A program made the position numbers and the translations under genes. DNA of 64,000 nucleotides, from assembly GCA_000092065.1 (NCBI GenBank), contig CP000597.1. One strand, written 5' to 3'. This DNA is from Ostreococcus lucimarinus. Its lineage: Eukaryota. Under the pieces are notes generated by a model that had not been told where the DNA came from, did no database searches, and saw only the letters and a program-made list of their open reading frames with translations. Below, in pieces: positions 12,238-53,241 of the stretch (the stretch's first letter is position 1; each line of letters begins with the position of its first letter).

Positions 12238-12570
12238 CTACGTGTGCTCGAAAAATCTGGCGCTGAGCCAATTGAAGTAGACGTACGCGATCGTCCCTGG
12301 GATCAACGCCGGAACGACGCGCGAGTAATACGCGTCCCTCAGCGCCCAATCGATGACTTCTATCCCAGTTTCCAACCGTCGCGTCCCGCTCAGGTCCCCG
12401 ACCACGGACGCGGTCAAGAGTACGAACGCAACCACGGACGCGGCGCACATCGCAACGCCGCGCGCGACGGCGCTCGAGCGCTCCTCCGGTGGATTCCACG
12501 TCCAAGTCGAGCGCCCGCCGCCGAATTCGCTCGCGCGAAGACGCGGCGACGCCGACGCGCGACGGCTCAT
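12238..12570 (-). CDS. Small (110 aa) two-transmembrane-helix membrane protein; weak resemblance to PIG-P/DPM2-type small ER subunits
   Basis: ORF 12238..12612 starts with GTG; first ATG at 12570 (MSRRASASP...). Two hydrophobic segments (AMCAASVVAFVLLTASVV and VVPALIPGTIAYVYFNWL). Codon usage is gene-like rather than pure GC artefact. Family assignment is a guess. Confidence 0.35.
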   Translation of the reverse strand: MSRRASASPRLRASEFGGGRSTWTWNPPEERSSAVARGVAMCAASVVAFVLLTASVVGDLSGTRRLETGIEVIDWALRDAYYSRVVPALIPGTIAYVYFNWLSARFFEHT

Positions 12571-12748
12571 GAGGGCGTCGACGCGAGGCGAACCGTCATG
12601 GGTTCGACGCACGAACGCGCGCGATGGACGCGACGCGCGTGAACGGGCGCGCGCGCGTGTGACGACGCTCTCGCGCGCGACGCCGCCAAACCTACCGCTC
12701 TCGCGCTCGCTATTACGCTACGTGACGCTAATAAATACTACGCGACGC

Positions 12749-13585: not shown

Positions 13586-14397
13586 CGAGTGACGCGCGCG
13601 GACGTCGTCGCGCGACGACGACGCGCATGCGCGACGACGGCGACGCCCGAGCGGTGGCGACGATCGCGCTCGACGCGCGCGCGGCGCGCGAGGACGACGC
13701 GCGACGGATGCGCGACGCGCGCGCGGCGAGGGACGAGGCGGCGAGGCGCGCGGCGCGCGTCGACGCGCGACGACGCGCGGCGCTCTACGAACGCGCGCTC
13801 CGAGACGCGCGTCGCGAGTTCGTCGACGATCTCCGTCGCCGGCACGCCGCGCGAATCGCGCGCGCGTCGTCGTCGCGCGCGCCGACGACGTCCGCGACGA
13901 CGTCCTCGTCGGCGCGCGTCGCCGCCGCGCCGTCGCCGTCGCCCTCGCGCGTCGACGCGACGACCGCGTCGTCGCCGAGCGCGCTCGATTTCCGTTCGTT
14001 CGCGCGTCCGGCGTCGTCGTTCGTCGCGTCGCCGTCGCCGTCGCCGCGTCCGCCGTCGCCCCTCGCGTCGCCGGACGCGCGCGACGTTCGTCTCTGGTCT
14101 CGCGTCGACGCGATGTGTCGAAGCGCCGACCGTCTGCGAGCGCGTCTCGCGTGAGCGCATCGAAACCCGTCGCGCTTCGAGCGGTCGGTCGAGGCGTCGG
14201 AATTCGGTCGTCGTCTCGAATCTAGACATTCTCGCCGCCGTTCGCGCGCGTTCGTTCGCGTTCGTCGTTCGTCGTCGTCCGCGCTGTAAAATTCAAATCT
14301 TCATGTTGTGTCCGTGTGTGAGCTGTCGCGAGTCTCACTCGATCGCCCGTCGGACGCGCGATCGTCCCGCGCGTCGCGCCACGTCGACGCGCGCGAC

Positions 14398-14532
14398 ATG
14401 CGGGACGACGACGACGACGATGCGTTCTGTGACGTCGACGCCATGATCGCGGCGCAGGACGACGCGATCGCGAGCGACGACGGGGGGTTAGATTTGAATT
14501 CGAACGCGCGCGACGATGGATTTCATTACCCG

Positions 14533-26266: not shown

Positions 26267-28222
26267 TCAGACGCACGGACAAATGTTTGTGCAGTCGGCG
26301 TGCGCCGCGGCGTACGTGCACGACGCCGGGAGATGGCCGTGAGACGGGCTCAAGAAGCACCGTCCAGAAAGCGCGGAAACGCCACCGCAGTGCTGTGTCT
26401 CGTCGTTGAGCAAGATTTCGTCGCACGCCACGATGTTTCCAGAGCCGTCTGCGCTCGTCGTCCTGGAGATGACGTCGCGGAAATCATTCATAGTGCTCGG
26501 CCACACGTGTTCGGCGCACGTCTTCTGAACCTCGGCGCATCGGGATTCGCACGTTTGCAACGATCCAAACTTGGTTTGAGTCCACTCGATACCGTTCGCC
26601 GTGAGGCGTTGATCGGCCGGGATCGCCTCGACCGGGCCAGATTCTTCCATGGCGCCCATGCCGGCGGCGGCAAACCGGTTAGGATCGACGTTCGCCTTCG
26701 GCGGTTGCGGCGGTTGTTCCACTAGCACCGGCTGTTCCATCAACACCGGTTGCTCCACTTGCGCCGGTTGCTCCACTTGCTCGCCGTAATGATCGTTGTC
26801 GTATTCGCGATCTTGGTATTCGTCCGTCGCCTGCACCACCGGCGCCGTGGACTCCAACGTCGGCTGCGTTTCCACGGGCGGCATCACCGGTGCCGTGGAC
26901 GACGCTTCTACCGGGTTCATCGGAACTTCGGGTAAACCGCCTTGTTCGCACCCGGTGACACCGTAATGGTCGCACACGCACTGAGTGCACGTTTCCCATC
27001 CGTCTTCGTAGCTGATGGATGGATCTTGGTGATCCGTCTTGCAAAATCGACAAGCGCTGTCAGCGTAGCAACCTTGGCCGCCCTCGGTCAGGCATCGCTT
27101 ATCGTACATCAAGTACAAAATCTTGCTATCGCACGTGTTATAGTTGCACGTGAGACCTAAAGCGGCGGAAGCAGTGGACGACGCCGTCAAGAAGCTCGAC
27201 GCCAGTCCTTCGTCTGTCACCTCCGCCACCTGCGGCTCGCTCGAGAATTGTTGCGCAGGCGCCGCTTGCGGTATGTCTGAGAATTCATCATACGCTTGCG
27301 CGGCTTGCACCGGCGCCGCTTGCACCACGGTTGAGGATTGCTCGAGCGTCGGCGTGGCTTGCACCGGCGCCGTCGTTGGCGTGGCTTGCACCGGCGCCGT
27401 CGTCGGCGTGGATTCCAAACCTTCCGGCGTCGGCATCCCCGCGCATCCAGTGCTGAAACCATAATGCTCGCACACGCACGGGTCACAAAGACCCATAGAG
27501 TCCGGAATATCGTTCATACCGCCTTGTTTTTCCATCCCGAGCACGCGGCAGAACCGGCACCCGCTGTCGCCCACGCAACCGATGCCCCCGTTCGCGCACG
27601 CCGGATCGACGTGCTGGAACTTATCTGGACACATGGCCGCGTCGCACGTCGCGCCTTCGGCGATCAACGCCGCGGCACCGTCGACGCCTGAACCCGCGAT
27701 GGGCGTCGAGACGATGCCTGAGCCGACGGCCGCCGCGCCGCTCGCCGCCGCGCCGCTCGCCGCCGCGCCGCTCGAGAAACCGATCGACGAAGACTTAAAA
27801 TTCTCCGCCTCATCCTTGAAAAACTGCGGCACGTCGCCGAGCGCACCGCTGTCCACGTCGTGCGTTCTCGACACCCTCCTCGATCGCTCGGATTCGCTCG
27901 CCGTGTTCCACGCTTCGCCCTCCAACAGCGGATTCGACGCCCCGAGCTCCGTCAGCGCCCCGTCGCGTCTCGCCCCGCCCAACCGCGCCACCGTCTCCTT
28001 CGCTCGGTACCGCCGCGTCAGATCATCGCGAGTTTTCTCATCCAAATCCAACACCGTTCCCTCGTACGCCGCTCCCTCGACCCGTCGCACGCTTCGCTTC
28101 CCCAGCGCCGCGTTCGCGTTCGCGTTCGCGTTCGCCGTCGTCTCCCGCCCCCCCATCGCCGCCATCATCGCCATCATCCCCAGCGACGCCATCGCCGCGC
28201 TCGCCATCGTCCGTCGGTTCAT
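26267..28222 (-). CDS. Secreted cysteine-rich protein with two copies of an unrecognised 10-Cys module plus a third Cys-rich C-terminal region and short proline-rich tandem repeats
   Basis: ATG at 28222 gives MNRRTMASAAMASLGMMAMMAAMGG, plausible as a signal peptide. Module 1: CDAAMCPDKFQHVDPACANGGIGCVGDSGCRFCRV...CDPCVCEHYGFSTGC. Module 2: CNYNTCDSKILYLMYDKRCLTEGGQGCYADSACRFCKT...CTQCVCDHYGVTGC. Cys spacing is identical (C-x4-C-x10-12-C-x6-C-x5-CRFC-x17-20-C-x2-CxC-x7-8-C). Linkers are (APVQATPTT)n and (VEQP)n. Confidence 0.6.
   Translation of the reverse strand: MNRRTMASAAMASLGMMAMMAAMGGRETTANANANANAALGKRSVRRVEGAAYEGTVLDLDEKTRDDLTRRYRAKETVARLGGARRDGALTELGASNPLLEGEAWNTASESERSRRVSRTHDVDSGALGDVPQFFKDEAENFKSSSIGFSSGAAASGAAASGAAAVGSGIVSTPIAGSGVDGAAALIAEGATCDAAMCPDKFQHVDPACANGGIGCVGDSGCRFCRVLGMEKQGGMNDIPDSMGLCDPCVCEHYGFSTGCAGMPTPEGLESTPTTAPVQATPTTAPVQATPTLEQSSTVVQAAPVQAAQAYDEFSDIPQAAPAQQFSSEPQVAEVTDEGLASSFLTASSTASAALGLTCNYNTCDSKILYLMYDKRCLTEGGQGCYADSACRFCKTDHQDPSISYEDGWETCTQCVCDHYGVTGCEQGGLPEVPMNPVEASSTAPVMPPVETQPTLESTAPVVQATDEYQDREYDNDHYGEQVEQPAQVEQPVLMEQPVLVEQPPQPPKANVDPNRFAAAGMGAMEESGPVEAIPADQRLTANGIEWTQTKFGSLQTCESRCAEVQKTCAEHVWPSTMNDFRDVISRTTSADGSGNIVACDEILLNDETQHCGGVSALSGRCFLSPSHGHLPASCTYAAAHADCTNICPCV
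26725..26778 (-). repeat. 18-bp tandem repeat x3 encoding (VEQPxL/VEQPPQ) linker repeats in the Cys-rich secreted protein
   Basis: caccggctgttccatcaa / caccggttgctccacttg / cgccggttgctccacttg read directly. Confidence 0.8.
27354..27407 (-). repeat. 27-bp tandem duplication encoding (TAPVQATPT) repeats in the Cys-rich secreted protein
   Basis: gtggcttgcaccggcgccgtcgttggc / gtggcttgcaccggcgccgtcgtcggc, one mismatch. Confidence 0.85.
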
Positions 28223-29253
28223 CCGCAGTCCCTCCCCCGCGCCCTCGCTCGCGCCTCGCGCGTCTCGCGCGTCGTCGTCGTCGCTCTCGCGTCGTCGTCG
28301 CGCGTCCCGATCGTCGTCGCGTCGGCCCAGCAGCGACGCCGATTCCGACGCCCGCGCCGCATCGCGCGATCGCGCGTCGTCCGGTGCGCGCATGCTCGGC
28401 GCGCGCGTCGTCGTCGTCCGCGCCGTCGCGCGTCGTCGAGCGTCGCGCGATGCGAGACGGTACCACAACTTTAGTGTTGGCGAAACCACGAAATCCCGTC
28501 CCGCGCGCGTCACCGAACCCGATCGGCGTCGCCCGCCGTGTCTCTGGTATACGGGTACACGCACCGTTCTCATATGAACGCCGAGGTACTATAATACCTC
28601 TAATAACGCTCTATGAAAGGTGCGAGCGGGACGCCCGACCGACCCCTCGTGCGTGTCCGAATGTCCGATCGTCCCCGAATGTCCGAATATCCGAATAATC
28701 CCATCCGTATGCGCGAGCAGTCCGACGCGAAGACCGACCCAAGCGCGGCATCCATCCATCGATGCCCCACTCTTCGACGGCGATTCGCGACGCCGGTCGA
28801 CCCGTGGACGCCGCAGACGCCGACGGACGCCGCCGAGCGCGAAGAGCGGACGGTGTGCGACGCGAACACAACGCGACGACGCGACGACGCGAATCCGGAC
28901 GCGCGACGACGAGGACGCGCTCGAGCGCGCGCGAACGCTGACTGGACGCCGCGTCGGCGCGGCGCGCGACGAAGCGAACGCGCGATGGGGCTCGAGACGG
29001 CGCTGCTGAGGAACCACGAGCGGTTGGGGAAGATCGCGCTCACGGGAGGGTTCGCGTTCGGGTTCGCGTACACGACGAAGACGGGGACGAGTCCGCTCGC
29101 GGGATGGGGATGGACGCCGCGGACGCGCGAGGCGAGCGCGCGCGCGGCGACGGCGAACGATTGATGATTGTTGTTGTTGTAAAAAGAATGGGTTTGTACG
29201 CACGACGATGGCGCGCGGTGATCGACGCGCGCGGTTTGACTAGGGCTAAGATG

Positions 29254-34615: not shown

Positions 34616-36031
34616 CTATTTCAAAATTTTATCCAGCTTCGCTTGCCAGAGTTCTTGTCTCGCGCACACCGCCTTTGGGTTGCTCACTTGCAGCTTCGAG
34701 AATTCAGACGAGTTGTTCAAGTTGATCCACGCCGCCAAAATCGTGCTCTTTTTCTCCAAAGCTTTCTTCGCGTCGACGTCGGTCAACGAATACATCAAAG
34801 TATCCCAAAGTGCGACGTTGATTTCGCCCGACGTGAAGAATTCACGGAAGAACAAACCATTGACGTCTTCCTCCGTGACTTTTTTGCCTTTGCCCACCGG
34901 CGACGTTGGGCGAAACGCGCAATCGCCGAAAATATCATACGCGAGCTTGATCGTGCGGTTAAACGATGCCTGCATGTCTCCTGCATCTTGAGGCGTCATG
35001 TCCTTGTTTTCGCGCATCTCCTCGTTCAACCAGCTCTTGATTGGGATGAAGAAACCCTCCGGCGCCGTTCGCATCATAGCAAAGTACCGCAAAACCAACT
35101 CCCGATCGCGCATGCGCAGATGCGGCGTCTTCGATCGATAAACTTTCAACAAATTCTCGTTTTTGACCAATTCTTCCAGCAAGTCGGTGTACATCCCTTG
35201 GTAGATGCAGTTTCTCAACTCTTGTTCGTTCAACTGCGTCGCGCCCATGTTTAAGCGCTCAAACACTTCAAACACAAAATCCGGCTGCGACGATCGTGAG
35301 ATCGTGTGCACGTTCAGAGGGTAGTCTAAAATCGTCTCTTGAAATCGTTCGTGCAAGTCCGTGAACGTCAACCCGTTCAAGTCTTCGTAAACCTCCAACC
35401 CGGTCAGCCTGAACGGAGATCCATCCGGAAATTCACACTGAATAAAGCTCCAAATCGACGTCAAACGCTGCTTGCCATCCACCACCTCTAGCTTCCCACT
35501 CTGCGTCTCGTGAAAGAACATCGTCGGTACGGGAATGTTTAAGATCAAAGACTCTATGAGCTTACTCGCCGTGCGAACCGTCCACACGTATTCTCTCTGA
35601 TAACTCGGTCGCAAGTTCACCTTGCCGCGATTAATCTTGTCGATGACACTATTCACCGTGAAATCCGCTTTTTGTATTTGCAGCGCCGCGCGATCGACCT
35701 TGAACAACGTTTCCTCTAAATCTGCGAACAAGTCCTCGTCCACGTCGTCCTGCGCGCTGGATTTTCGCGAAAACGCCGCGTTTCGCGGCGTCGCCTCGCT
35801 CGCGCCCACGTGTTCCCACAGCGAATCATCATTCGCGTCCGCTACCGCGCTCGCGGCGTCGCCCAGGGACGTCTCATTCCAGAGTTCTTTGTCTTGTTCG
35901 TCCCCGAGCAAGGCGCGAGGCGTTTGAGGGCGCGAGCGCCGCGTCGTTCGCGCCGATGTCCCGCGAGAGTGATTCTGGCGGGAAAGTGGTTTCACCGGCG
36001 TCGCGCGCGCGCTGCGCGCGTAAACCATCAT
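34616..36031 (-). CDS. DUF262-domain protein (ParB/sulfiredoxin-fold NTPase-like domain found as the N-terminal half of GmrSD type IV restriction enzymes), stand-alone, in a eukaryotic gene
   Basis: ATG ATG at 36031/36028. Core DUF262 signature …RPSYQREYVWTVRTASKLIESLILNIPVPTMFF…LEVVDGKQRLTSIWSF… (QREYVW + DGQQRLT-type motifs). Downstream …FERLNMGATQLNEQELRNCIY… No HNH/DUF1524-type nuclease motif in the C-terminal half. Low-complexity ~120-aa N-terminus. Confidence 0.75.
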   Translation of the reverse strand: MMVYARSARATPVKPLSRQNHSRGTSARTTRRSRPQTPRALLGDEQDKELWNETSLGDAASAVADANDDSLWEHVGASEATPRNAAFSRKSSAQDDVDEDLFADLEETLFKVDRAALQIQKADFTVNSVIDKINRGKVNLRPSYQREYVWTVRTASKLIESLILNIPVPTMFFHETQSGKLEVVDGKQRLTSIWSFIQCEFPDGSPFRLTGLEVYEDLNGLTFTDLHERFQETILDYPLNVHTISRSSQPDFVFEVFERLNMGATQLNEQELRNCIYQGMYTDLLEELVKNENLLKVYRSKTPHLRMRDRELVLRYFAMMRTAPEGFFIPIKSWLNEEMRENKDMTPQDAGDMQASFNRTIKLAYDIFGDCAFRPTSPVGKGKKVTEEDVNGLFFREFFTSGEINVALWDTLMYSLTDVDAKKALEKKSTILAAWINLNNSSEFSKLQVSNPKAVCARQELWQAKLDKILK

Positions 36032-36248: not shown

Positions 36249-37724
36249 TTAAGACGAACGACGCTCCAGGACGTCATCGTGGGCTAGAACTATGACTTTT
36301 GACGGACGACGACCGATCGAGACGGACGGCTCGCTGACGCCGAAGAGGACTTCGGAAAAGAGAGCCTCATCCACGCCATCGAGGGCGTCCATGTCGACGT
36401 CTTCGGGCCATTGCATGCGTCTGCGAAGTATGTCGAACCAGTTCGGGGCGAAGACGGCGGTGCGAGCGCGCTCAGACGTCTCCGCGGTGAGACGCGCTCG
36501 CTCGATGGCGTCGCGGAAATCGTGCAGGCGCGCGCGATAACGCTCCATCGCGACGATATCCTTTCGTCGGCGAGCCAACTGACCGTCGTAATAGTTTAAT
36601 AACGTTTGTTCACCTCCGTCGCGGGTGATAAGAGCGTTGACCTCGTGCGCCAGCTCGATGATGGTGCTCGCGGAGTCGATCGGATTGGCCATCAAATGCG
36701 GCGCATACGCGTACATCGTCATAGCGTCGTCCGCGTCCGACGTCACCGCGATCGAGAGCTCGAAACCGGGTGGAAAATTTTCCTTAGCGTACGCAAATAG
36801 CGAACGCAACACGCGAATCGACTCCTTGTACTCGTCGTCGTCGTACAAGAATTTCCCGTCTTCGTCGCCACCCCAGACGAGAGACAGCGACACCACGAAT
36901 TGATTGCACGCCTCTGGGCATCGTGATCGCCGAAAATCCAGCGCGGCGTCTACGATCAACTTTTCATTCCTTTCCATGAAGGCCACTTTATCGCTCAATC
37001 GCATGGGCATGACGATCGATCGCGGAAGCACCTCCGCCAGCGCCGATCGCGAGAGCGTTCGCTTGCTCCGCTCTCGCGCCGCCACCGTTGCCGCGAACGC
37101 CCGCACGCCCTCCGTTCGAGCCTCTAAAAACGAATACACTAACGTATCCTTATACATCTCCGGCTGATCCACGACCGCCGATCGCGCGTTCAACCACCCT
37201 TTCCCCCGCCGCTTGACGACGTTGCCCAACCGGTACCCGCCGCCGCGTTTATTCACCGGAATCTTCCAAAGCTCGCGCGCGTCCCGCACGACCAGCGCCC
37301 AAGCGCTCGCCGAACGCTCGACCGTGAAACTCGTGCTCTCGTACACCGGTCGAGGGTTCGCCAACCACGCGTCGACGTCGAATTCATCGGTTTCCGTCGC
37401 CTCGCTCGTCGTCGTCGCGTCAACACCCAAACGCGCCGCGTCAGGAACCGCGTCGCGGCGCACGTTCAGCCATCCCGCGTTCGAGACGCCGAGCGCGTGC
37501 GTTTCGCGCGGTGCGATCGGCGTCGTCGCGCGCGCCAGCGCGCACGCGCCGAGCGCACCGAGCGCGCCGAGTCCGACCGCGAGCGCCAACACCCTCGGCG
37601 TTCGCGCGCGCGCGTCGCTCGTGCGCGCGCCAAGTGACGCGCGTTCGACGTCGACGACGCGTTCGACGTCGCGCTCGAGCAGCGCGGCGTCTTCGCGCGG
37701 CGTCTCGGCGCGGGCGCCGGACAT
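36249..37724 (-). CDS. Hypothetical type II membrane protein (N-terminal signal anchor); possibly a Golgi glycosyltransferase-like enzyme, family not recognised
   Basis: ATG at 37724. Hydrophobic anchor VLALAVGLGALGALGACALARA ~40 aa from the N-terminus. Long lumenal domain with gene-like codon usage. No diagnostic motif I can name. Confidence 0.4.
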   Translation of the reverse strand: MSGARAETPREDAALLERDVERVVDVERASLGARTSDARARTPRVLALAVGLGALGALGACALARATTPIAPRETHALGVSNAGWLNVRRDAVPDAARLGVDATTTSEATETDEFDVDAWLANPRPVYESTSFTVERSASAWALVVRDARELWKIPVNKRGGGYRLGNVVKRRGKGWLNARSAVVDQPEMYKDTLVYSFLEARTEGVRAFAATVAARERSKRTLSRSALAEVLPRSIVMPMRLSDKVAFMERNEKLIVDAALDFRRSRCPEACNQFVVSLSLVWGGDEDGKFLYDDDEYKESIRVLRSLFAYAKENFPPGFELSIAVTSDADDAMTMYAYAPHLMANPIDSASTIIELAHEVNALITRDGGEQTLLNYYDGQLARRRKDIVAMERYRARLHDFRDAIERARLTAETSERARTAVFAPNWFDILRRRMQWPEDVDMDALDGVDEALFSEVLFGVSEPSVSIGRRPSKVIVLAHDDVLERRSS

Positions 37725-37829: not shown

Positions 37830-40340
37830 CTAGAGATTACACGCCTCGGCACCGCACGCTTGGACGACGCTTGGTCGCTCGGTGCCGACGCCGTCGAACG
37901 GGACGTCGCTCGAGGCAACGAAGACGACTTGTTCGGGCGCAGACGCGCACTTGGGTAAGAATTCCAGGACTTCGCCGATGATGGTGGTGTGCTCGTAACC
38001 AGCGCGTTTTAGCGCTTCGACCGCGGCGTCGGCGCTGGCGCTCGGGAGGGAGGCTAACATCCCGCCCGCGGTTTGCGGATCAAAGAGAAGAGGGTAACGC
38101 GCGGCGCCGGATACGGCGGCTGGATTTGCGATGGCACGCGCCAAGCGCACATTGGCCGGCTGAAGCGAGCTCGTAATGCCGATTTCGACGCACTCTAACG
38201 CCCCAGGAAGCACTGGGAGGGCGTCCATGTCGAGCACGCACGCGGCGCTGCTTCCTTTGCACATCTCCACCAGGTGACCGAGCACGCCGAATCCCGTGAC
38301 GTCGGTGCACGCCGTGGCGCCGTGTTCAAACAAGGTTCGAGCGGCGACCGCGCTGGGCTGTCTCATAGAATCCAAGGCATTGGACACCCACCGTCCCTGC
38401 GCTTTTGATCGCATGTCCGCCGCGAATAGCGTGCCGGTGCCGATGGGCTTGGTGATGATGATTTTGTGACCGGCTCGCATGCCGCCCTTCTTCATCAACT
38501 TTTCCCGCGGTGCGGCGCCGTGCACGGAGAATCCCAGCGATAACTCAGCGCCCTCGGAACTGTGACCGCCGGCCAATCCACATCCAGCGTCGCGTAAAAT
38601 ATCGCACGCACCCGCCATCATTTGATACAACGTCTCCTCCACTTGCGATTCCAATCCGTACGGCACCGTCGCGATTGCAAGCGCGGCGTGCGGGTCGGCA
38701 CCCATGGCCCAGCAGTCTCCGAGCGCGTGCACGGCGGCAATTTGGCCGAAAATGTAAGGGTCGTCCACGAAAGCGCGGAAATAGTCCACGGTCTGCACGC
38801 CAACCATGCCGTCGGGCACAGAAACTACGGCAGCGTCGTCGGGTTGATCGATTCCAACCTCGACGTTCGGGTTCGTCGGAATCGGCTCGAGGCGCTTCAT
38901 CACGCGCGACAGCGTCGTGGCGCCCACCTTGGCGCCACAGCCACCACATCGCATCGGCACCGCGCGAATGGCGGCCATGGTATCTGAGCCCGCGGCGAGC
39001 GCCACTGCGGGTTGCTCGACCTCCGCTTCCTTCATTTCTGGTATCTCTTGATACATTTTCATCCATTTACGGTCAATTTTGTCCTTCCATCGCCACAGGC
39101 GCTCGCCCACGGGGCCGAGACCGCCGAGGGCGAGGTTGCCGTAAGACAACACCGCAGACTTACCGCCGGTGGTGATTAAACCCAAAAATAATTTTTGCGG
39201 GGTGAAATCGACTAAAGGTTCCCCCAGCAACGCACGACGTAGGTTCTTGTCCAACGGAGGCCCTTGACGCACCGCGAAGACTCCCGCCTTTGGTCGCGGA
39301 TGTTTCAGCACGTTTGCAACGTCCCCGGCGGCGAAGATGTTCTTGTGCGACGTCGACTCGAGCGTGGGATTGACTTCGATGAAACCGTTTGCGTCCAACG
39401 CCAAGTTCGTGGACTCGCGCAACCATTTGGCCGCGCCCGCTTGCGTGCACCAAATGCACTCGTCGGCGGAGACGACGCGACCGCTCTCGAGCGTCAATTT
39501 CCCTTGCTCGGCGGTAACCACGCCGTCGCCTTCGATGACGTCCACCCCCGACTCGGCGAAAATATTTAGAAACGTCTTGCGCACCCGCTTAGCGTGCGAC
39601 GGCATCAACGTCCCGCGCGTCACGAGCGTGAACTTGGCCAAGTTTTCATCCATGCCGCGCCGTTTCAACTCCTCTCGCGTGCGATGTCGCATCGAAAGCG
39701 CGAGTTCGGCGCCCCCAGCGCCTCCTCCGACGATCACAACCTCGCAATGCTTCCCCGATTCAATCACGCGTCGCAGCATTGCCTCCCATCGCGCGTTAAA
39801 CCCACATATCGGCTTCACCGGCGTCGCGAACGCCTCCGCGCCTCGCACGTCGCCCGCGCGCGGCGCGATGCCCACGTCAACGCTCGCCACGTCGAATCGC
39901 ACCCCCGGCCTCCCACTCTTCACGATCACTCGCCCATCGTCGTGATCGATCCCGATCGCTTCATCGTGCACGATTCTGAATCCTCCGTTCCGGCACAGCG
40001 GTTCTAAATCCACGCGCGTCTCGTCGTCTTCGTAGTGTCCCGCGACGGCGCCCGGCAGCATGCCCGAGTACGGCGTGTGCAGGTCTTTCGCGATCAGCGT
40101 CACCCGCACTCCCGGCATCGGCGTCATCGCGAGCGATTTCAGCACGTACACGTGCGCGTGACCGCCTCCGACGAGCACCAGGTCCTTGATCGTCGGCGTC
40201 GCCGCGCGCGAGCCGCGCATGTCTGCCGACGACGAAATTGCACTTTTTGTCCCGCGCGTCCCGAAGCGTTTTCTTCGCGACGCGGCGACGAACGACGACG
40301 GGACTCGACGCGGAAGCGCGTGCGAGCGCGCGCTCGGCAT
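37830..40340 (-). CDS. selD: Fusion protein: N-terminal FAD/NAD(P)-binding pyridine nucleotide-disulfide (NADH dehydrogenase-like) oxidoreductase domain + C-terminal selenophosphate synthetase (SelD/SPS, Cys-type)
   Basis: N-terminal Rossmann motif LVLVGGGHAHVYVLK, second dinucleotide motif CEVVIVGGGAGGAELA, and …IFAAGDVA…. C-terminal half aligns with SelD: PMRCGGCGAKVGATTL (cf. E. coli GAGCGCKISP, Cys not Sec at the catalytic position), …DDAAV…, AIR-synthase-like fold motifs …GHSSEGAELSLGFSV…, …VTGFGVLGHLVEM. ATG at 40340. Confidence 0.85.
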   Translation of the reverse strand: MPSARSHALPRRVPSSFVAASRRKRFGTRGTKSAISSSADMRGSRAATPTIKDLVLVGGGHAHVYVLKSLAMTPMPGVRVTLIAKDLHTPYSGMLPGAVAGHYEDDETRVDLEPLCRNGGFRIVHDEAIGIDHDDGRVIVKSGRPGVRFDVASVDVGIAPRAGDVRGAEAFATPVKPICGFNARWEAMLRRVIESGKHCEVVIVGGGAGGAELALSMRHRTREELKRRGMDENLAKFTLVTRGTLMPSHAKRVRKTFLNIFAESGVDVIEGDGVVTAEQGKLTLESGRVVSADECIWCTQAGAAKWLRESTNLALDANGFIEVNPTLESTSHKNIFAAGDVANVLKHPRPKAGVFAVRQGPPLDKNLRRALLGEPLVDFTPQKLFLGLITTGGKSAVLSYGNLALGGLGPVGERLWRWKDKIDRKWMKMYQEIPEMKEAEVEQPAVALAAGSDTMAAIRAVPMRCGGCGAKVGATTLSRVMKRLEPIPTNPNVEVGIDQPDDAAVVSVPDGMVGVQTVDYFRAFVDDPYIFGQIAAVHALGDCWAMGADPHAALAIATVPYGLESQVEETLYQMMAGACDILRDAGCGLAGGHSSEGAELSLGFSVHGAAPREKLMKKGGMRAGHKIIITKPIGTGTLFAADMRSKAQGRWVSNALDSMRQPSAVAARTLFEHGATACTDVTGFGVLGHLVEMCKGSSAACVLDMDALPVLPGALECVEIGITSSLQPANVRLARAIANPAAVSGAARYPLLFDPQTAGGMLASLPSASADAAVEALKRAGYEHTTIIGEVLEFLPKCASAPEQVVFVASSDVPFDGVGTERPSVVQACGAEACNL

Positions 40341-40457
40341 GCACGCGCGACGGGCGCGAGTCGCGCCGCGCGCGCGTCGAGGTGTGCGGGGACGATCGCG
40401 CGATTCACGACGACGACGACGACGGACAAAGCGGCGCTGCGGGGTGTGACTACAAGA

Positions 40458-41682: not shown

Positions 41683-43683
41683 ATGCGCGTCGCGACGTCC
41701 GCGACGTCCGCGCGCGCGCTCGGCGCGCCGTCCCTCGCGCGCGCCGTCCCTCGCGCGCCGCGAATCGCGCGCGCGAACCGCGCGCGATGGATGAAGCGCG
41801 CGCGCGCGACGACGACGACGCGCGACGACGCGACGAGAGACGACGACGACGCGCGCGCGGCGACGATTCACGTGCCGTCGCTCGTGCGGCGCATGCGAGC
41901 GATCGCGCGGCGCGGATGCGCGATCATTCGAGAGGTGACGGAGGGCGGCGACGTCGGCGCGCGGGACAAGGGCGGCGCGCAGCGGGCGGACGGGACGTAC
42001 GTGGCGGACGCGCAGACGGAGGCGGATCGACGCGTGGAGGCGATGGCGATCGGTGCGCTGCGAGCGTTTTCGAAGGATTTGAATCTGGTGGCGGAGGAGA
42101 GCTTCGAGTGCGCGGCGACGATCGAGGCGTACGCGGGGGCGGGGGAGTGGACGACGATCGCGGATCTGGAGGCGGAGGACGAGGACGAGGCGGACGAGAC
42201 GTGGGCGCCGGAACTGAGAAAACCGATCGCGGCGTCGAGGGTGGCGGTGTATTGCGATCCGTTGGATGGGACGAACGAGTACGCGGCGGGTGAGCGGGAG
42301 GCGATCACGGTGCTGTTGGGGGTGGCGGTGGACGGGACGCCGCGCGCGGGGGTCATCGGACAGCCGTTTCACGAGCGCGGGAAGAGCGAGGATTTGGGTC
42401 GGGTGGTTTGGGGAGGCGCCGGCGTCGGCGTGCACGGATTGGACATCGCCGAAGACGCGCTGGCGCCGCCCGTGCCGCCGCACGGCGCGCACGTGGTGGC
42501 GGTGAATAGGAATTTACGAGAAAACAGACAGGCGCCCGTGCTCGAGGCGTTGCAATCGCGCGTGGACGTCGTCATCAGCGCCACGGGATTTCATTATTTG
42601 ATGCTCCTGGAGCGGCGCGCGCACAGCGCTTTATTACTTAGGAAAGCGTCAAAGAAGTGGGACACGTGCGCGGGGGAGGCGCTGCTGCGTGCGACGGGAG
42701 GAATCGTCACCGACACCGTCGGTCGGCGGTACGACTACTCGTACAACTTGAACGCGTTGCCGAATCTGAGCGGCATGGCGGCGAGTTTAGACGTCGGCAT
42801 GCACTGCGAGATGACGGGAATCATTCGAGACGTCATCGAACCGCTCGGTGATTATCCGTACGACGTCGATGATCCCTCCATCAGACCGAGCGTGCTCGAC
42901 GGCGTGCAAACGCCCGCCGGCGGCTGGCGCGCCGTCACGGTGGACGTCGGCGGATGTCTCATCGAGCCTCGCGAACGCGTCGCTGACGTGTACGCGCGCA
43001 CCGCGCGCTCGATCGGTATCGATTACGTAACCAGCGAAACCGCGTCGCACGATTTCAAAGAGGCTTTCGCCAAGTTTCGCGGCTCGGATGAACCGAACGC
43101 CATGCGATACTACGACGACGGGAAATCGTTTTGGCGTAAAGTCATCGCGCACGTGTTATCGCGCGGCGGGGCTCGAGCTTCCGCGGATGACGCCGTCGTG
43201 GAAACGATGTTGACGAAGCTGTATGAATATTACGAGCACCCGAGCGCGTGGTACGTCGCGCACGGCGCCGTCGACGCCATCTCCCGACTCCGAAGATCCG
43301 GCGTCAAAGTCGCCGTGGCGTCGAATTGGGATTCCAGGTTACCTAAACTTTTGGAATCCCTCGATTTGGCGCGACATTTCGACGCCATCGTCGTCTCAGC
43401 CATCGAAGGGTGCGAAAAGCCATCCAAAGAGTTCTTCACGAAGTGTCTCAACGCCGTGGACGTCCCCGCGTCTGCGACTTTACACGTCGGCGACGACGAG
43501 CGAAACGACGTCTCCGGCGCCGTCGCCGCCGATTTCGCGTGCGCCGTCCTGTGGGCGCCGCCGCGTCCCGCCACCGCTTCCAGTCCCGCCCCCGCCCCGC
43601 GCGTGCGAGACTTCAACGAGCTCACCGACGCGATATTATCCGCCAACCGCGCGCACGTCACCCACAAACACTATTTTCAGTAA
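41683..43683 (+). CDS. Two-domain fusion: inositol-monophosphatase-family / 3'(2'),5'-bisphosphate nucleotidase-like domain + HAD-superfamily (subfamily IA) hydrolase domain
   Basis: ATG at 41683. IMPase-family metal-binding motifs …VYCDPLDGTNEYAAGE… and …WDTCAGEALLRATGGIVTD. C-terminal HAD motifs: …AVTVDVGGCLIEP (motif I DxG-type), …KVAVASNWDSRL… (motif II), …HVGDDERNDVSGA (motif IV). Confidence 0.75.
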   Translation: MRVATSATSARALGAPSLARAVPRAPRIARANRARWMKRARATTTTRDDATRDDDDARAATIHVPSLVRRMRAIARRGCAIIREVTEGGDVGARDKGGAQRADGTYVADAQTEADRRVEAMAIGALRAFSKDLNLVAEESFECAATIEAYAGAGEWTTIADLEAEDEDEADETWAPELRKPIAASRVAVYCDPLDGTNEYAAGEREAITVLLGVAVDGTPRAGVIGQPFHERGKSEDLGRVVWGGAGVGVHGLDIAEDALAPPVPPHGAHVVAVNRNLRENRQAPVLEALQSRVDVVISATGFHYLMLLERRAHSALLLRKASKKWDTCAGEALLRATGGIVTDTVGRRYDYSYNLNALPNLSGMAASLDVGMHCEMTGIIRDVIEPLGDYPYDVDDPSIRPSVLDGVQTPAGGWRAVTVDVGGCLIEPRERVADVYARTARSIGIDYVTSETASHDFKEAFAKFRGSDEPNAMRYYDDGKSFWRKVIAHVLSRGGARASADDAVVETMLTKLYEYYEHPSAWYVAHGAVDAISRLRRSGVKVAVASNWDSRLPKLLESLDLARHFDAIVVSAIEGCEKPSKEFFTKCLNAVDVPASATLHVGDDERNDVSGAVAADFACAVLWAPPRPATASSPAPAPRVRDFNELTDAILSANRAHVTHKHYFQ

Positions 43684-47492: not shown

Positions 47493-49583
47493 TTACACCG
47501 GGACGAATCGACGCGGATCTTCGGCGACGAAACGAAACGCACGCGGGCCGTCGAGCGCGTGCGAACGCACGGGCGAACCGACGTACCAAAACACCCAGCC
47601 CTTGCGCTCGCCACGCAAAATCGCCGCCGTCTCCGCGCCGCCGTCGTCGTACACGATCCTCAAAGATTTCAACTCCTCCCGCGCGGAATCATGCGCGTCG
47701 GCTCTCGAGGTAGCGGGTCGCGCGCCAAAGTGACGCCGGTTCGCAACCGAGTACCCGCTCTCTACGAACGCATGGACTTCTTCCGCGAGAAAAATCAAAC
47801 GCGCCGCCGCGCCGCGCGCACTTAAATTACGTCGACCATCGGGCGCGCACGCGGCGACGTACGCCCTCGCGGGTTCCGCGTCTCGTAACACATCACCGAA
47901 TCGTAACAATGCGTTGAACGCGATTTCGACGCGCACAAATTCGTCGAGCGATCCCTCGCGGAATATTCCAGACAGAAATTCTTCCTCCGTCGCCGCGCCG
48001 ACGCGCCAAAGTTCGGTGAGGAATTCGGCGGCTCCGGCGATGGTTTCGTCGTCGCTCGAGTCGAGCAAAGCGATAACGCGACGACAAATGTCGTCCCGAA
48101 ATGGCATGGCGTCGCTCAAAGTGGCGTACATCGCCGCGTAACTTTTTTGACACACGGCTGTCGTCACGATTCGCTCCGCGTAAGCGTCAAAGACGGAGAC
48201 GCCTTCAATCGCGGTCAACATTTGACGCGTGGCACGTGGCGCGGTGTCCGGCGTCGAACGATTCAGCGCGGCGTTGAACGCGGCGACCGGATTGCTCACC
48301 GTCGTCGTCGTCGTCGCCTGCAACTTTCGCCAATCAGAGTCGTAATCGCGCGAATCGTCGCCGTCGACGGTCCATCGGTCCTCGTCCGTCTTTGGTAACA
48401 CGACAACCTTCTTCAGCCCACGTCGTTTCTCCACCCCCTTTGCAGTCGGGTCTTTGACACGCTCAAACGCCAAGAGGCAGCACTTTTCAAAACTCGCAAC
48501 GACGGATTCTTTCGCCGTCTTGATTCGGACGGGTAATCCGAATTCGTGATAACCGTCGCAGACGTGGCGGAGCAATGCCTCCTTGACGCCGGCGCCGCGG
48601 AATTCGGGAAGCACGCAGAGTCGATCCACTTGTGCAGTGGTGAACACAGTATCTGGAGAAGAAAACGGATACGCCACCGTCGCGGTTTCGTCGCTCTGCA
48701 AAGCGCTCATCGCGACGTAGCCGACGGCGACGCCGGAATCCGTCAATTCGAGCTCGTAATACACGCCGTGCGGCTGCGGCGGCGCGGCGACGTAGTGATG
48801 CGCCGAGTACCCCCCGGAACACCAGCGTTCGGGCGTGGACGCCTTCAATCGCGCGGTCACGCCTTCGCGCAGCGTCACGTTGAACCCGCGCGTTTCAACG
48901 AAGGCGCGAACGGCGTCGCTGACATCCGCGAGTTGCTCCGCCATGGACAGCGTCAAGCGCTGTATAGGATCGCCATCGATCACCAATCGTTCGCGAGCAC
49001 GCGCGATGAGTACGTCACCGTCGTCTTCGACGCGATCGGCGATGATGGCGATCGCGCGCGCGTGCTCTCGATGCCACGTTCTGCTCGCGCGCTCCTCTTC
49101 GTCTTCGTCTTCCTCCCCAGACCGCGCGCGTCGACTCGGATACAGCCTTCGCGCCGGGCAACGCGCGACCACCGCGTTAAACAACAGATTCGCCCTCAAG
49201 CACGACGCCTTCGTCGGCGCGGCACCGCGCGCGAGCGCGATGCCGACGTCTACGCCCTTCGGCAACGCGCTTCGAAACGCCGCAAACGTCTGCGTCGCCC
49301 GCGTCGTCCCCGTCCCTCCCAATCTCGCGCACACCACCACCACCCGCGTCGTCGACGTCCTCAAAACCTCCGCGCACACCGCTTCAACCATTTTCCTGCA
49401 CTCCCGCGCGCTCTTATGATCGCCTCGCCAGCGATACGTCCCGTCGCTCGTCTCCGCCGGTTTCGTCCTCGTCAGCGTCGTCGTCGTCGTCTCCCCGACC
49501 TCTGGAAACACGCGCGTCGCCCACGCCCGCGCCTCCGCCTGATCGCTCGCGCCGAAGCACACCACGTGCGCGCGCGGCGCCAT
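47493..49583 (-). CDS. Multidomain protein: N-terminal Rossmann-like domain, central GNAT acetyltransferase-like domain, C-terminal MIF4G-like helical domain (function unknown)
   Basis: The supplied 1222-aa ORF (to 51161) is low-complexity Arg/Ser upstream of the ATG at 49583 (MAPRAHVVCFGASDQ…); I take 49583 as start. GNAT-like core …LCVLPEFRGAGVKEALLRHV…. C-terminal helical repeats (…ETIAGAAEFLTELWRVG…). Confidence 0.5.
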   Translation of the reverse strand: MAPRAHVVCFGASDQAEARAWATRVFPEVGETTTTTLTRTKPAETSDGTYRWRGDHKSARECRKMVEAVCAEVLRTSTTRVVVVCARLGGTGTTRATQTFAAFRSALPKGVDVGIALARGAAPTKASCLRANLLFNAVVARCPARRLYPSRRARSGEEDEDEEERASRTWHREHARAIAIIADRVEDDGDVLIARARERLVIDGDPIQRLTLSMAEQLADVSDAVRAFVETRGFNVTLREGVTARLKASTPERWCSGGYSAHHYVAAPPQPHGVYYELELTDSGVAVGYVAMSALQSDETATVAYPFSSPDTVFTTAQVDRLCVLPEFRGAGVKEALLRHVCDGYHEFGLPVRIKTAKESVVASFEKCCLLAFERVKDPTAKGVEKRRGLKKVVVLPKTDEDRWTVDGDDSRDYDSDWRKLQATTTTTVSNPVAAFNAALNRSTPDTAPRATRQMLTAIEGVSVFDAYAERIVTTAVCQKSYAAMYATLSDAMPFRDDICRRVIALLDSSDDETIAGAAEFLTELWRVGAATEEEFLSGIFREGSLDEFVRVEIAFNALLRFGDVLRDAEPARAYVAACAPDGRRNLSARGAAARLIFLAEEVHAFVESGYSVANRRHFGARPATSRADAHDSAREELKSLRIVYDDGGAETAAILRGERKGWVFWYVGSPVRSHALDGPRAFRFVAEDPRRFVPV

Positions 49584-49968
49584 CACGCGTTCCAATCCAA
49601 CGCCGAATCGTCGTCGTCGTCGTCTCGCGCTTCGTCGTCGTCGCCGTCGTCGCCGTCGTCTCTTCTCCCCTCGCTCGCGCGCGCGCGAAAGCACTTCGCG
49701 AGGTGCGCGAGCCCTATCGTCCGGCACTCCTCGCTCCACGCCTGCGCGAGCTGCGCGCGCTCGCGCGCCGTGAGCGGCACGACGACGCGGCGTCGCGCTC
49801 GAACGGCGTCGCTGAATTCGCGTTCGAGTTCGAATTCGTCCTCGAATCGCGCCGCCGTTCGAGCGCGGCGCCCGCGTCGCGCCGCGCGCGTCGCGCGCGC
49901 TCTCGCGCGCGTCCCCGCGGGCGCGCTCGAGCGCGTCGCGGCGCGCATGCGCGGTCGCGCGCGTTTTA

Positions 49969-52900
49969 ATGACGCTCGAAGCGGCGCGACGCTTCGAGGC
50001 GGTGACGCGAATCGTCACTCGACGTCGCGCGCGCGCCCGATCGCGCCGCGCGCGCATGGACGACGCGCGCGATGCCCTCGACGCGCTCCTGACGGACGCG
50101 CGCGCGCAGCGAGCGCTCGCGGACGACGCGAGGTGCTTTCCCGAGTGTCGAGAATCGCGCGCGCGATCGAAATCGCTTCGCGAAATCGTCGCCGCGTGCG
50201 AAGCGCGACCGCGGTTGGGCGTCACGGACGCGCGAACGCGATTCAACGCGTCGCGCGCGACGGCGGACGCGACGCACGGCGCGCGAGACGACGACGACCT
50301 CGATGGGATGGACCTCGGCGACGGCGCGGGTGTTGGGAAGACGACGACGACGACGACGACGCGAGAGGTCGAGCGCGAGCGCGCGACGACGCGCGATGAG
50401 GACACGGGAACGAAATTGTGGATGACGTGCGATGGGATCGTGTTCGTGGTGACGGCGGAGGCGTCGATGGGCGAGCGCGGGGGGGGGCGGGAGGCGAAGG
50501 CGAAGGCGAACGCGCCGGCGACGAGCGAGGACGCGACGACGGGCGAAGAGAACGAAAAGACGACGCAATGGCCGGAACCGAAGCGGAGGAACGAAGGAGG
50601 GAGCGGCGATAAATCGTTGGTCGGCGCGGTGAAGGCGCTGAGAGGGACGCGGTTGGAGGGCGTGGTGGACGAGATCGCGTCCAACGTCGAGCGGTTGGGG
50701 GCGAGCGGAATTTTTGTGGTTTGCGAACGCGTGGGGGATTCGGATAACGTGCGCGCGTCCAAAATTCGCGATGCGCTCGTGAAATTGACGGGCGTGGTTG
50801 GGAACAACGTGTTTTGCGTGCCCGAGGGCGCTCGCGAGGGGCTGAGCGCGGTGGATGGGGGACACGTGGACGCTGAAACCGGCGGATGGTTTAGCGGATC
50901 GAGCGGGAAGAAGACGGTGGCGAAAGATTTCCAGCTTCGTTTAGATAATTGGCAATTAGAGTGGCGGAACAGTCGAGCGAAAAAACTCAGAAACGCTGAA
51001 TACGAAGCTATACGCCAGGAGACGCAGTTTTGGGCGATGTTTCTTCGCAAAGACGACGAGTGGCTCGCCGAGGAGCGCGAACGTGAGGAGGCGCGGAAAA
51101 AGGACAACGAAGCGGACGCAAAGGGCGATGAAGTGAGCGCCGACGGCGCCGAAACGTCCAAGATGGATAAAGTGGATAAAGAATCACTCGCGCGCGTCCA
51201 TGAAACGGCTTCGTTGCTGGCGATTCACAAATTCCTCAAGACGGCGATCGAGGGCGTGCCCATGGCTGGCATTCCCGGCGCCCCGGAGATGGCTTGGAAA
51301 CATTTTCAAAAATATCCCGAGCCCGAACGTGCACCGCTCATGAATGCCGTGTACTCACACAACGTCATTCAATACGCCGCGGCGCTCATGTTCGCTTGGC
51401 TGACGCCCGGACCCGTGGGCGCGCACGCGACGCATTTCATGAATCGCTTTCGTATTTCTCTCTTCTTCGCGTGTCTGTGCGGATCGTCGCCGTTAGATCC
51501 GACAGTGATCACCACCGCCATCGCGCTCGCGGCAGGGACGGATAAGGAAAATTTGCAGATGTCCCCTGTTATTCGTTTCATGAAAGACGACGTTGAGAGT
51601 GAGGTTTCGAGCGAGGACGAGGCGTCGGAGGACGAGGACGCGAAGCCGCGGATGGACATCGATGGCGTCGTGGATGTCAAATCGGCTTCGACATCGTCGC
51701 TCGATGAATCTTGGGGATCGCTCAATTCAATGTCGTCGTTAATGCAAGACGCTCTCGACCGCGCCGTCGCGGAAGGGAACGATCTCAAACGTCGAGCGTC
51801 AAAAATGCTGGTTGATTTCTTAAATTCTGGCAACCGAACCGTGCTGAAGAGTCGTCGACGAGCGATGAAAGCGGCGTGCGACGCAAAGGCTGACGCTATG
51901 CAACAAAAGAAAATGTCTTACGACGAAGCGGAGAAGATGGCGAAGAAGGTCTTCGATAGGGAGTTTTCTCGAGATGCAACAAAGCGCTTGACGACGCTCA
52001 TATTTGGACCGAAATACTTTGCGTCGGTCACGGCGGATATAACGCAAGTGATCAACTCTTCGTTTACGACGTACATCGCGATGTCGTCGATCGATATTTT
52101 CTTACCCATGGTCGAAGAACACGAAGAGAAGATGCGGTTGAAGAAGGCGGAAGAGGAAGAACAGGCGAAAGCCGCCGCCGCCGCCGCCGCCGCCGCCGCA
52201 ACAGCGGCGCTGACGACAAAGAATGGCTTCATTCACGTGACGCTCGAAGTCGAGAAAGATTGCGTGCGATGCACGCTCACCCCGACACCGTTACCGACGA
52301 CGGTTGAAAAGTTGTTAAGCACGTCCAAGATCATCAGTGAAAAGACTGTGGCGTTGACGGCGAGCACGGCCGAGGCGGTATCGTCGAGCGCTGAAGCCGT
52401 GTCCACGTGGGCGTCAAAAACCACGGACTCGGTGCGAAAAGAAACCAATCGCGGTCTAGAGCTCGCTCAAGAAAACGCCAAGGCGAGCATGGAAAGCGCA
52501 AAAAGTGGTTTGGAAAACGTCGGTGCGTTCTTTGACAGAACGAAGACGACACTGAATTCGACCATAACGTCGAGCGCGACCTCCATCACCACCGTCTTTT
52601 CGTCGTTGAAGACGGGCGGCGACGCGAGTGCGAGCGATGGTAAGGTTTCTATCGACGTTCGTTCACTTCCGGTTCAGCGTATTGCCGCCGCGCTGGAAAA
52701 CGAAGAAGTCGATCGCGTTATCGCTGACTCAAATTTGGTGCTCAAGATGCCCGCGGATTTGATCCTCTCCAAGGCGCTCGGTGATATTTACAAGGAAGTG
52801 CGAGCAGACGCCTCGGCGTTCGTCAAATACAAGGATGACGAGACCGTCTTGCGCGCTATCCAACGCCTGCTCGAGCTCGTCGTGGAAAGCGGTGACGAAG

Positions 52901-53241
52901 TCGCGATCAACGAGCTCATCAAACTCGGCGTCGTTCCGCGACCGAAATCCGCGGCGCAAGCCAAACTCGAGGCGTGGCGAGAAAATTTCCGCAAGCGTGA
53001 ATCTGAACCCGCGAGTGCGATAAAGGACGACGCAAAGTCTAGTGAAGCAGCTGAGACACCGCCTCCATCGACTGCTTCGAAAATCATCCCAGAAGCCTTG
53101 CGATCCGCGTTCGCCGCGCCGCTGACGCTCTTTTCGCGCGCGTCGGCGTCCGCGCCGTCCGTCGACGCCGTCGACGCCGCCCCGTCGCCCGACGCCAAGA
53201 TCGCCGTCGATGCCAAGGCCAAGGCGAGCGATTCGGCGTGA
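49969..53241 (+). CDS. Large hypothetical protein (up to 1090 aa) with acidic tracts, a poly-Ala run and a C-terminal amphipathic-repeat region; family not recognised
   Basis: ATG at 49969, but the first ~110 aa are Arg/Asp low-complexity and the true start may be later (e.g. MDLGDGAG ~50320). Gene-like codon usage. Conserved-looking blocks …AVYSHNVIQYAAALMFAWLTPGPVGAH… and LEA/apolipoprotein-like repeats near the C-terminus. Stop 53239-53241 is followed by TGTAA. Confidence 0.5.
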   Translation: MTLEAARRFEAVTRIVTRRRARARSRRARMDDARDALDALLTDARAQRALADDARCFPECRESRARSKSLREIVAACEARPRLGVTDARTRFNASRATADATHGARDDDDLDGMDLGDGAGVGKTTTTTTTREVERERATTRDEDTGTKLWMTCDGIVFVVTAEASMGERGGGREAKAKANAPATSEDATTGEENEKTTQWPEPKRRNEGGSGDKSLVGAVKALRGTRLEGVVDEIASNVERLGASGIFVVCERVGDSDNVRASKIRDALVKLTGVVGNNVFCVPEGAREGLSAVDGGHVDAETGGWFSGSSGKKTVAKDFQLRLDNWQLEWRNSRAKKLRNAEYEAIRQETQFWAMFLRKDDEWLAEEREREEARKKDNEADAKGDEVSADGAETSKMDKVDKESLARVHETASLLAIHKFLKTAIEGVPMAGIPGAPEMAWKHFQKYPEPERAPLMNAVYSHNVIQYAAALMFAWLTPGPVGAHATHFMNRFRISLFFACLCGSSPLDPTVITTAIALAAGTDKENLQMSPVIRFMKDDVESEVSSEDEASEDEDAKPRMDIDGVVDVKSASTSSLDESWGSLNSMSSLMQDALDRAVAEGNDLKRRASKMLVDFLNSGNRTVLKSRRRAMKAACDAKADAMQQKKMSYDEAEKMAKKVFDREFSRDATKRLTTLIFGPKYFASVTADITQVINSSFTTYIAMSSIDIFLPMVEEHEEKMRLKKAEEEEQAKAAAAAAAAAATAALTTKNGFIHVTLEVEKDCVRCTLTPTPLPTTVEKLLSTSKIISEKTVALTASTAEAVSSSAEAVSTWASKTTDSVRKETNRGLELAQENAKASMESAKSGLENVGAFFDRTKTTLNSTITSSATSITTVFSSLKTGGDASASDGKVSIDVRSLPVQRIAAALENEEVDRVIADSNLVLKMPADLILSKALGDIYKEVRADASAFVKYKDDETVLRAIQRLLELVVESGDEVAINELIKLGVVPRPKSAAQAKLEAWRENFRKRESEPASAIKDDAKSSEAAETPPPSTASKIIPEALRSAFAAPLTLFSRASASAPSVDAVDAAPSPDAKIAVDAKAKASDSA
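52167..52202 (+). repeat. (GCC)11 trinucleotide repeat encoding poly-Ala in the large hypothetical protein
   Basis: aaagccgccgccgccgccgccgccgccgccgccgccgcaaca; translation KAAAAAAAAAATAA. Confidence 0.9.

Follow-up and report, generated by a model that had tools for sequence, protein, structure and literature searches.

We report that the gene at positions 37830-40340, on the minus strand of a 64-kb stretch of Ostreococcus lucimarinus DNA (contig CP000597.1; the whole stretch is referred to as the window), is very probably a nuclear member of the Ndh-SelD family, which is also called NADH-SPS or 'SPS clade I'. Its product would accordingly be a bacterial-type selenophosphate synthetase (SPS, SelD) that contains cysteine in the active site and carries an N-terminal FAD/NAD(P)H flavoprotein domain resembling type II NADH dehydrogenases (NDH-2). 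The gene belongs to a marine picoeukaryote from the green-algal lineage and marks it as a selenium user. Fusions of this kind have been known since 2008 and form a documented and very abundant family, so that no new kind of system is described here. The gene touches on the question of how SelD obtains its selenium in vivo, for which the fusion has served as a clue since that year; a review from 2026 calls the in vivo selenium donor "incompletely elucidated" (PMC13188914). What interest remains is in what the flavoprotein half does, together with a number of algal-specific additions, namely a second cysteine pair (C295-x-x-C298), a C-x4-C tail and a probable presequence followed by an ancestral Met.

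The two halves of the protein and the SelD active site

The open reading frame (ORF) begins with ATG and contains zero internal stops. A single 836-aa ORF had been proposed by a sequence-only reading of this DNA, and the ORF list agrees with it. Pfam assigns Pyr_redox_2 to residues 52-360, AIRS to residues 501-609 and AIRS_C to residues 622-792 of the product. The combination of a two-Rossmann, NADH-dehydrogenase-like domain with a full SelD domain, which the same reading had suggested, is recovered by Pfam, NCBIfam, phmmer, alignment and Foldseek, and the motifs that it quoted are found at residues 58-63 (GGGHAH), 205-210 (GGGAGG) and 463-471 (MRCGGCGAK).

The C-terminal half exceeds the cutoff of the selD equivalog TIGR00476 by far (297.5 bits vs 125, E 1e-88, residues 464-767), whereas sister families of the PurM superfamily score much lower (ThiL 69 bits, HypE 24.9 bits; NCBIfam). 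These scores exclude the possibility, raised for checking by the sequence-only reading, that this half groups with PurM/HypE rather than with SelD. E. coli SelD (PDB 3u0o) is matched by phmmer with E = 6e-50, and in this alignment C465-G-G-C468-G-A-K471 stands opposite G14-A-G-C17-G-C-K20 of the E. coli enzyme. Cys468 is thus the equivalent of the catalytic Cys17 and is encoded by TGT (window 38937-38939), not by TGA, which bears out the earlier claim of Cys instead of Sec (selenocysteine) or Thr at the catalytic position. Lys471 aligns with Lys20, and Asp502, Asp519, Asp542 and Asp680 correspond to Asp51, Asp68, Asp91 and Asp227 of E. coli SelD and are invariant in the alignments. The CGGCGAK loop is likewise invariant (47/47 sequences). 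With the stand-alone SelDs of E. coli (3u0o) and Aquifex aeolicus (2yye) the C-terminal half shares the PurM-like fold, the glycine-rich loop with Cys and Lys, and the four Asp, at about 30-32% identity and a TM-score relative to the target of about 0.8. The stand-alone enzymes differ in that they are without the flavoprotein domain, in the loop (G-A-G-C-G-C-K in E. coli vs C-G-G-C-G-A-K here) and in one conserved Asn that is discussed below.

With phmmer, the SelD half reaches 173 bits against E. coli SelD, compared with 59 against human SPS1 and 56 against a protist SPS from Leishmania; on these sequence scores it belongs to the bacterial-type clade. Eukaryotic SPS1 and SPS2 (SEPHS2), as represented by human 3fd5 and Leishmania SPS2 5l16, are of the same enzyme family and presumably catalyze the same reaction. 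They differ in being single-domain proteins, SPS2 being often itself a selenoprotein, and in their scores of about 55-59 bits vs 173 for E. coli SelD. Membership in the eukaryotic/archaeal-type SPS2 group was considered and rejected, given the closer match to bacterial SelD and the Cys codon at the catalytic position.

The N-terminal half (residues 53-430) matches the NCBIfam model TIGR03169, 'Nterm_to_SelD', with 435.8 bits vs a cutoff of 310 (E 1.5e-130). It ends in a conserved W-x-W-K-D-x-I-D-R helix, right behind which the stand-alone homologs of this domain stop. In a Foldseek search against the PDB its best matches are NDH-2 enzymes with TM-scores relative to the target of 0.82-0.88, followed by sulfide:quinone reductases (SQR), Ndi1, FSP1 and AIF; this agrees with the sequence matches, as phmmer finds NDH-2 proteins at E of about 1e-10 to 1e-11. 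The enzymes from Caldalkalibacillus thermarum (4nwz/5kmp) and YjlD of B. subtilis share the two-Rossmann FAD/NAD(P)H fold and the C-terminal helix with the N-terminal half. They differ from it by an identity of only about 19-23%, by a first motif of the type GxGxxG vs GGGHxH here, and by the fusion to SelD seen here. We note that GGGH(A/S)H in place of the canonical GxGxxG is a signature of this flavoprotein subfamily, with His61 and His63 being invariant.

Across 47 aligned sequences, no Cys of the N-terminal domain is invariant. Cys116 appeared as a candidate for a conserved redox residue because it is invariant in nine sequences, yet it is Cys in just 34 of the 47 and was dismissed; C295 and C298 are Cys in about half of them. 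A class I pyridine nucleotide-disulfide oxidoreductase (glutathione reductase, thioredoxin reductase, MerA, lipoamide dehydrogenase) was rejected as well, as an invariant Cys pair is missing from the FAD domain and the respective NCBIfam models reach about 20 bits vs cutoffs above 400.

An AlphaFold2 model built from the 47 sequences has a mean pLDDT (per-residue confidence) of 84.8 and a pTM (predicted TM-score) of 0.85. Its C-terminal half matches the Aquifex and E. coli SelD structures in a Foldseek search against the PDB. Its low-confidence parts are the N-terminus (residues 1-46), the loop with CxxC (461-473) and the ten C-terminal residues (pLDDT <50). The features of the gene are compiled in Table 1.

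Table 1. Positions of the fusion gene and its features in the window
Feature	Position	Strand	Basis or remark
Fusion coding sequence (Ndh-SelD), complete	37830..40340	minus	ORF list; 836 aa, stop codon 37830-37832
N-terminal extension, residues 1-40	40221..40340	minus	pLDDT ~30 in AlphaFold2 model, disordered
Met41, ancestral bacterial start position, possible alternative start	40218..40220	minus	invariant in nine-sequence alignment
NDH-2-like FAD/NAD(P)H flavoprotein domain, residues 53-430	39051..40184	minus	TIGR03169 'Nterm_to_SelD', Pfam Pyr_redox_2, Foldseek
First dinucleotide-binding motif (FAD site), G58-G-G-H-A-H63	40152..40169	minus	alignments
Second dinucleotide-binding motif (NAD(P)H site), G205-G-G-A-G-G210	39711..39728	minus	alignments
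Inter-domain linker, residues 431-463	38952..39050	minus	pLDDT ~57-60; co-linear in all homologs
SelD / selenophosphate synthetase domain (AIRS + AIRS_C), residues 464-792	37965..38951	minus	TIGR00476, phmmer to 3u0o, Foldseek 2yye + 3u0o
Active-site glycine-rich loop C465-G-G-C468-G-A-K471, CxxC signature of fused SelDs	38928..38948	minus	alignments + PMC2398784
His538 (CAC) at E. coli SelD Asn87 position	38727..38729	minus	alignment to 3u0o
Algal-specific C-terminal tail, residues 793-836, ending C829-G-A-E-A-C834-N-L	37833..37964	minus	alignments

Origin and integrity of the fusion gene

The fused layout has a well-documented background. Zhang et al. (2008) described the Ndh-SelD fusion with its CxxC signature and named Ostreococcus (PMC2398784). 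According to the same study, all Ndh-SelD fusions carry CxxC in the SelD active site, where it is rare in single-domain SelD, and the fusions account for about 40% of the Cys-type SelDs in ocean metagenomes (PMC2398784). A companion paper suggested that the NADH dehydrogenase generates a substrate of SelD (PMC2432076). The sequence-only reading made a matching proposal, in which the redox domain may provide SPS with reduced selenide. Mariotti et al. (2015) found the NADH-dehydrogenase-like domain to be the commonest SPS fusion partner in bacteria and protists, always N-terminal and always joined to a Cys-type SelD, and attributed the copies in protists to a bacterial gene that was already fused when it was transferred horizontally (PMC4561486). 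Selenoproteins and the Sec machinery have been reported in all genomes with such fusions, and the full Sec machinery in picoplanktonic green algae (PMC4561486, PMC6627142). In the classification of Liang et al. (2019), SPS clade I combines Pyr_redox_2 with both AIRS and AIRS_C and takes in the majority of Viridiplantae, most green algae included, as well as secondary-plastid algae and a diversity of bacteria; picoplanktonic Mamiellophyceae possess the full Sec machinery and many selenoproteins (PMC6627142). The statement in the sequence-only reading that similar SPS fusions occur in some protists and algae is correct (PMC2398784, PMC4561486, PMC6627142).

The present gene fits this picture. 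Like other members of Ndh-SelD / SPS clade I, it has the flavoprotein domain N-terminal, SelD C-terminal, Cys rather than Sec, and the CxxC loop, and bacterial members are 52-56% identical to it over about 90% of the length. Our homolog search covered 5.8 billion proteins, from which 8,000 candidates were scored and 120 listed with their domains. At least 7,979 of the scored candidates are homologs at E<=1e-10, and all of the 120 listed show the architecture Pyr_redox_2 + AIRS + AIRS_C. Among the matches listed, the closest non-algal full-length relatives are alphaproteobacterial, and the only eukaryotic match carrying a species name is from Prasinoderma coloniale (56% identity). Together with the bit scores of the SelD half, the alphaproteobacterial relatives are in line with the horizontal-transfer scenario. 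The lineage carries a bacterial-derived fused SPS, in agreement with the published surveys.

Could the fusion be an artefact, with two genes joined by a frameshift or an unrecognised intron, or a contig of bacterial contamination? We consider this so improbable that it can be set aside. Nothing was found in its favour; the only irregularity is that prokaryotic gene callers disagree on the start codon and yield products of either 796 or 836 aa. The same ORF was recovered in independent assemblies from many samples, and the exact sequence is already present in public collections. A near-identical protein (P0122), called from Met41, corresponds to residues 41-836 with the exchange I720L and is listed in 877 blocks of a public collection. 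An alignment of nine sequences, two of them alphaproteobacterial proteins with 54% identity and the NCBI name SelD, shows no break in co-linearity between the first Rossmann motif and the end of SelD, linker included. This co-linearity with algal and bacterial fusions and the large number of homologs with the three-domain layout rule out the frameshift or intron artefact against which the sequence-only reading had cautioned. As to contamination, the window also encodes an EML/HELP microtubule protein, LARP1, a FAST/RAP protein, an HSA-domain protein, a KH protein and a eukaryotic-type phenylalanyl-tRNA synthetase beta subunit. The gene order at the locus (Inositol_P/HAD, DnaJ, fusion, 491-aa protein, GmrSD_N, CitMHS) is common to relatives of 94% and 82% identity from marine metagenomes. 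Eukaryotic neighbours and shared gene order argue that the fusion gene is not a bacterial contaminant.

Function of the fused enzyme and competing explanations

Based on established SelD biochemistry, the C-terminal half is expected to form selenophosphate from ATP and reduced selenium held at Cys468, with Cys468 and Lys471 residing on a mobile loop; selenophosphate would then serve as the selenium donor for the synthesis of Sec-tRNA. As judged from the sequence, the flavoprotein half would transfer a hydride from NAD(P)H to FAD. The electrons of FAD could subsequently be passed on to selenium carried by the flexible C465-x-x-C468 loop (as a selenotrisulfide or perselenide, for example) or else to some small selenium compound close by, and this transfer would yield a substrate at the level of selenide in place. 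Since the flavoprotein half has no conserved Cys and the CxxC of SelD is the only invariant thiol pair, the CxxC loop or the selenium bound to it would be the most economical electron acceptor.

Several observations weigh against the assignment as an Ndh-SelD selenophosphate synthetase or against this role of its flavoprotein domain. Among solved structures, those nearest to the N-terminal half are of quinone reductases and sulfide:quinone reductases rather than of selenium reductases. A biochemical study of any Ndh-SelD fusion was not found in the searchable literature, so that the role of the flavoprotein is a hypothesis only. The conserved Asn87 of SelD, which is expected of a family member, is replaced by His538. 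This His is present in 47/47 fused homologs, and a wider set of fused sequences that could be scored by pattern contains 52 His vs 0 Asn; by these sequence counts the exchange is a family-wide trait and no lesion of a single copy. Finally, neither tRNA-Sec nor a SECIS element (selenocysteine insertion sequence) nor a selenoprotein gene was found within the 64-kb window, to which the search for selenium machinery was confined and which allows no conclusion on the remaining genome. The window contains no tRNA of any kind, no Rfam family at the gathering threshold and no SECIS-like match at E<=1. A scan of the window for in-frame TGA codons next to redox motifs returned 30 candidates, all of them in the wrong frame or Arg-rich noise; the two most protein-like ones, near 547 (plus) and 86 (minus), were translated and dismissed.

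The structural neighbourhood of the N-terminal half suggests another explanation, according to which it reduces quinones with NAD(P)H in association with the membrane or, in the manner of SQR, acts on selenide or sulfide, and the fusion serves localisation, redox sensing or detoxification instead of the supply of substrate. NDH-2, YjlD, Ndi1, SQR and FSP1 are the nearest solved folds, and a conserved, amphipathic-looking helix rich in Trp, Lys and Arg (residues 410-431) is situated where NDH-2 and SQR have their membrane-anchoring helices. In addition, about 30 of the top 150 relatives of the N-terminal domain are stand-alone proteins of about 370-395 aa, which indicates that the flavoprotein domain can work without SelD. 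However, the catalytic cysteines of SQR are missing, no Cys is invariant in this domain, and the identity to NDH-2 and SQR is just 15-23%. Moreover, the fusion is tightly correlated with the invariant extra Cys of the loop (CxxC), which is rare in unfused SelD (PMC2398784), and this correlation argues for a direct functional coupling of the two halves. We therefore regard a quinone reductase or SQR-like activity as rather unlikely.

Much less probable still is a C-terminal half that makes no selenophosphate and is a paralog resembling SelD, of the kind grouped in TIGR04369 ('oxidoreductase/SelD-related fusion protein', fusion_not_SelD) or of the SelD-like proteins for which a role in sulfur metabolism has been proposed. 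By E-value TIGR04369 is the top NCBIfam match (5.9e-133); it has the same two-domain layout and aligns over residues 56-780. Its score of 444.5 bits is far under the cutoff of 700, whereas the cutoff of the selD equivalog is exceeded more than two-fold. The His at the position of Asn87 would agree with a paralog, as would the finding of some 15 long fusions without the Cys/Lys motif among the 150 proteins most closely related to the N-terminal domain. Unlike in those proteins, the catalytic Cys and Lys are kept here, and together with the four catalytic Asp they are present and invariant. Furthermore, according to the literature every genome with such a fusion has selenoproteins and the Sec machinery. 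The motif-less fusions are 700-817 aa long, have no C..C..K in their second half (P0179, P0196, P0199, P0202, P0220, P0237, P0245, P0253, P0263, P0286, P0303, P0304, P0314, P0321) and probably constitute the 'fusion_not_SelD' family.

Algal-specific additions, neighbouring genes and further observations

Compared to bacterial Ndh-SelD proteins, the algal copies differ by N-terminal extensions of 40-95 aa, the longer tail with C-x4-C, and C295-x-x-C298; nothing essential differs. Residues 1-40 of the present protein are rich in Ser, Arg and Ala, contain one acidic residue and are missing from bacterial homologs, which begin at the position of Met41. Many gene callers choose the same Met as the start. 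Other algal orthologs have unrelated extensions of similar composition and always keep the equivalent of Met41. Comparison with the 94% identical relative shows the first ATG to be kept; the indels measure 3 and 9 nt inside the extension but 11, 5 and 1 nt in the upstream stretch. Across nine population variants the 120 nt of the extension are identical, whereas the preceding 120 nt vary. GC content at third codon positions is normal in the extension, and the high value at second positions is accounted for by Ser, Arg, Ala and Pro codons. By our own estimate, an open stretch of 40 codons arises by chance in roughly one of three cases at about 65% GC, which counts against translation of the extension. 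Overall, residues 1-40 are probably an organellar targeting presequence, provided that they are translated, and a second, untargeted isoform may be produced from the retained Met41.

The C-terminal tail of algal orthologs is 30-45 aa longer than that of bacterial fusions. Its C-x4-C motif (37839-37856, residues 829-834) has been retained in two algal subclades, while the tail diverges elsewhere; it reads CGAEACNL here, and a subclade of about 62% identity has NCDTGACEIP instead. A comparable position is taken in large thioredoxin reductases or in MerA by the C-terminal redox arms. The motif is predicted to be flexible by the structure model and could act as an additional redox or selenium-shuttling arm.

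The flavoprotein half contains a second CxxC, C295-I-W-C298 (39447-39458, minus strand), which the algal-type half of the 47 aligned sequences possesses, whereas bacterial fusions have I..V in its place. It is conceivable, if doubtful, that in the algal copies C295-x-x-C298, the C-x4-C tail and the CxxC loop constitute a thiol relay that leads from oxidised selenium to selenophosphate within one protein, in two isoforms and two compartments.

Directly downstream of the fusion gene and on the same strand, a 491-aa protein without Pfam match is encoded (36249-37724, minus); this order is kept in every related locus compared (94% and 82% relatives). It is followed by a 471-aa protein with the N-terminal domain of a GmrSD restriction endonuclease (DUF262-type; 34616-36031, minus), which is located in a eukaryotic nuclear context and whose position is kept in the 82% relative. 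On the other side, a 666-aa protein with inositol-monophosphatase-family and HAD hydrolase domains (41683-43683, plus) is divergent from the DnaJ gene, and its position is kept in the relatives. A (GTC)n microsatellite (~40405-40428) is situated upstream of the fusion gene, in the intergenic region between it and the DnaJ gene. Its length appears to be variable among near-identical metagenome variants, judging by about 28 offset mismatches that arise when these are compared without gaps.

Elsewhere in the window, two sub-threshold Rfam matches resembling H/ACA snoRNAs adjoin in one gap between long ORFs (11634-11778 and 11989-12116, minus). They reach 28.4 bits (snoR2/U65) and 29.6 bits (snoR137) vs a gathering score of 44 and may be a real snoRNA pair. 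Long ORFs of 697-1222 aa without Pfam match are located at 7737-11393 (+), 12353-14446 (+), 26267-28573 (-), 47493-51161 (-) and 49969-53241 (+). The last two overlap on opposite strands, and at least one of them is probably a GC-rich shadow ORF.

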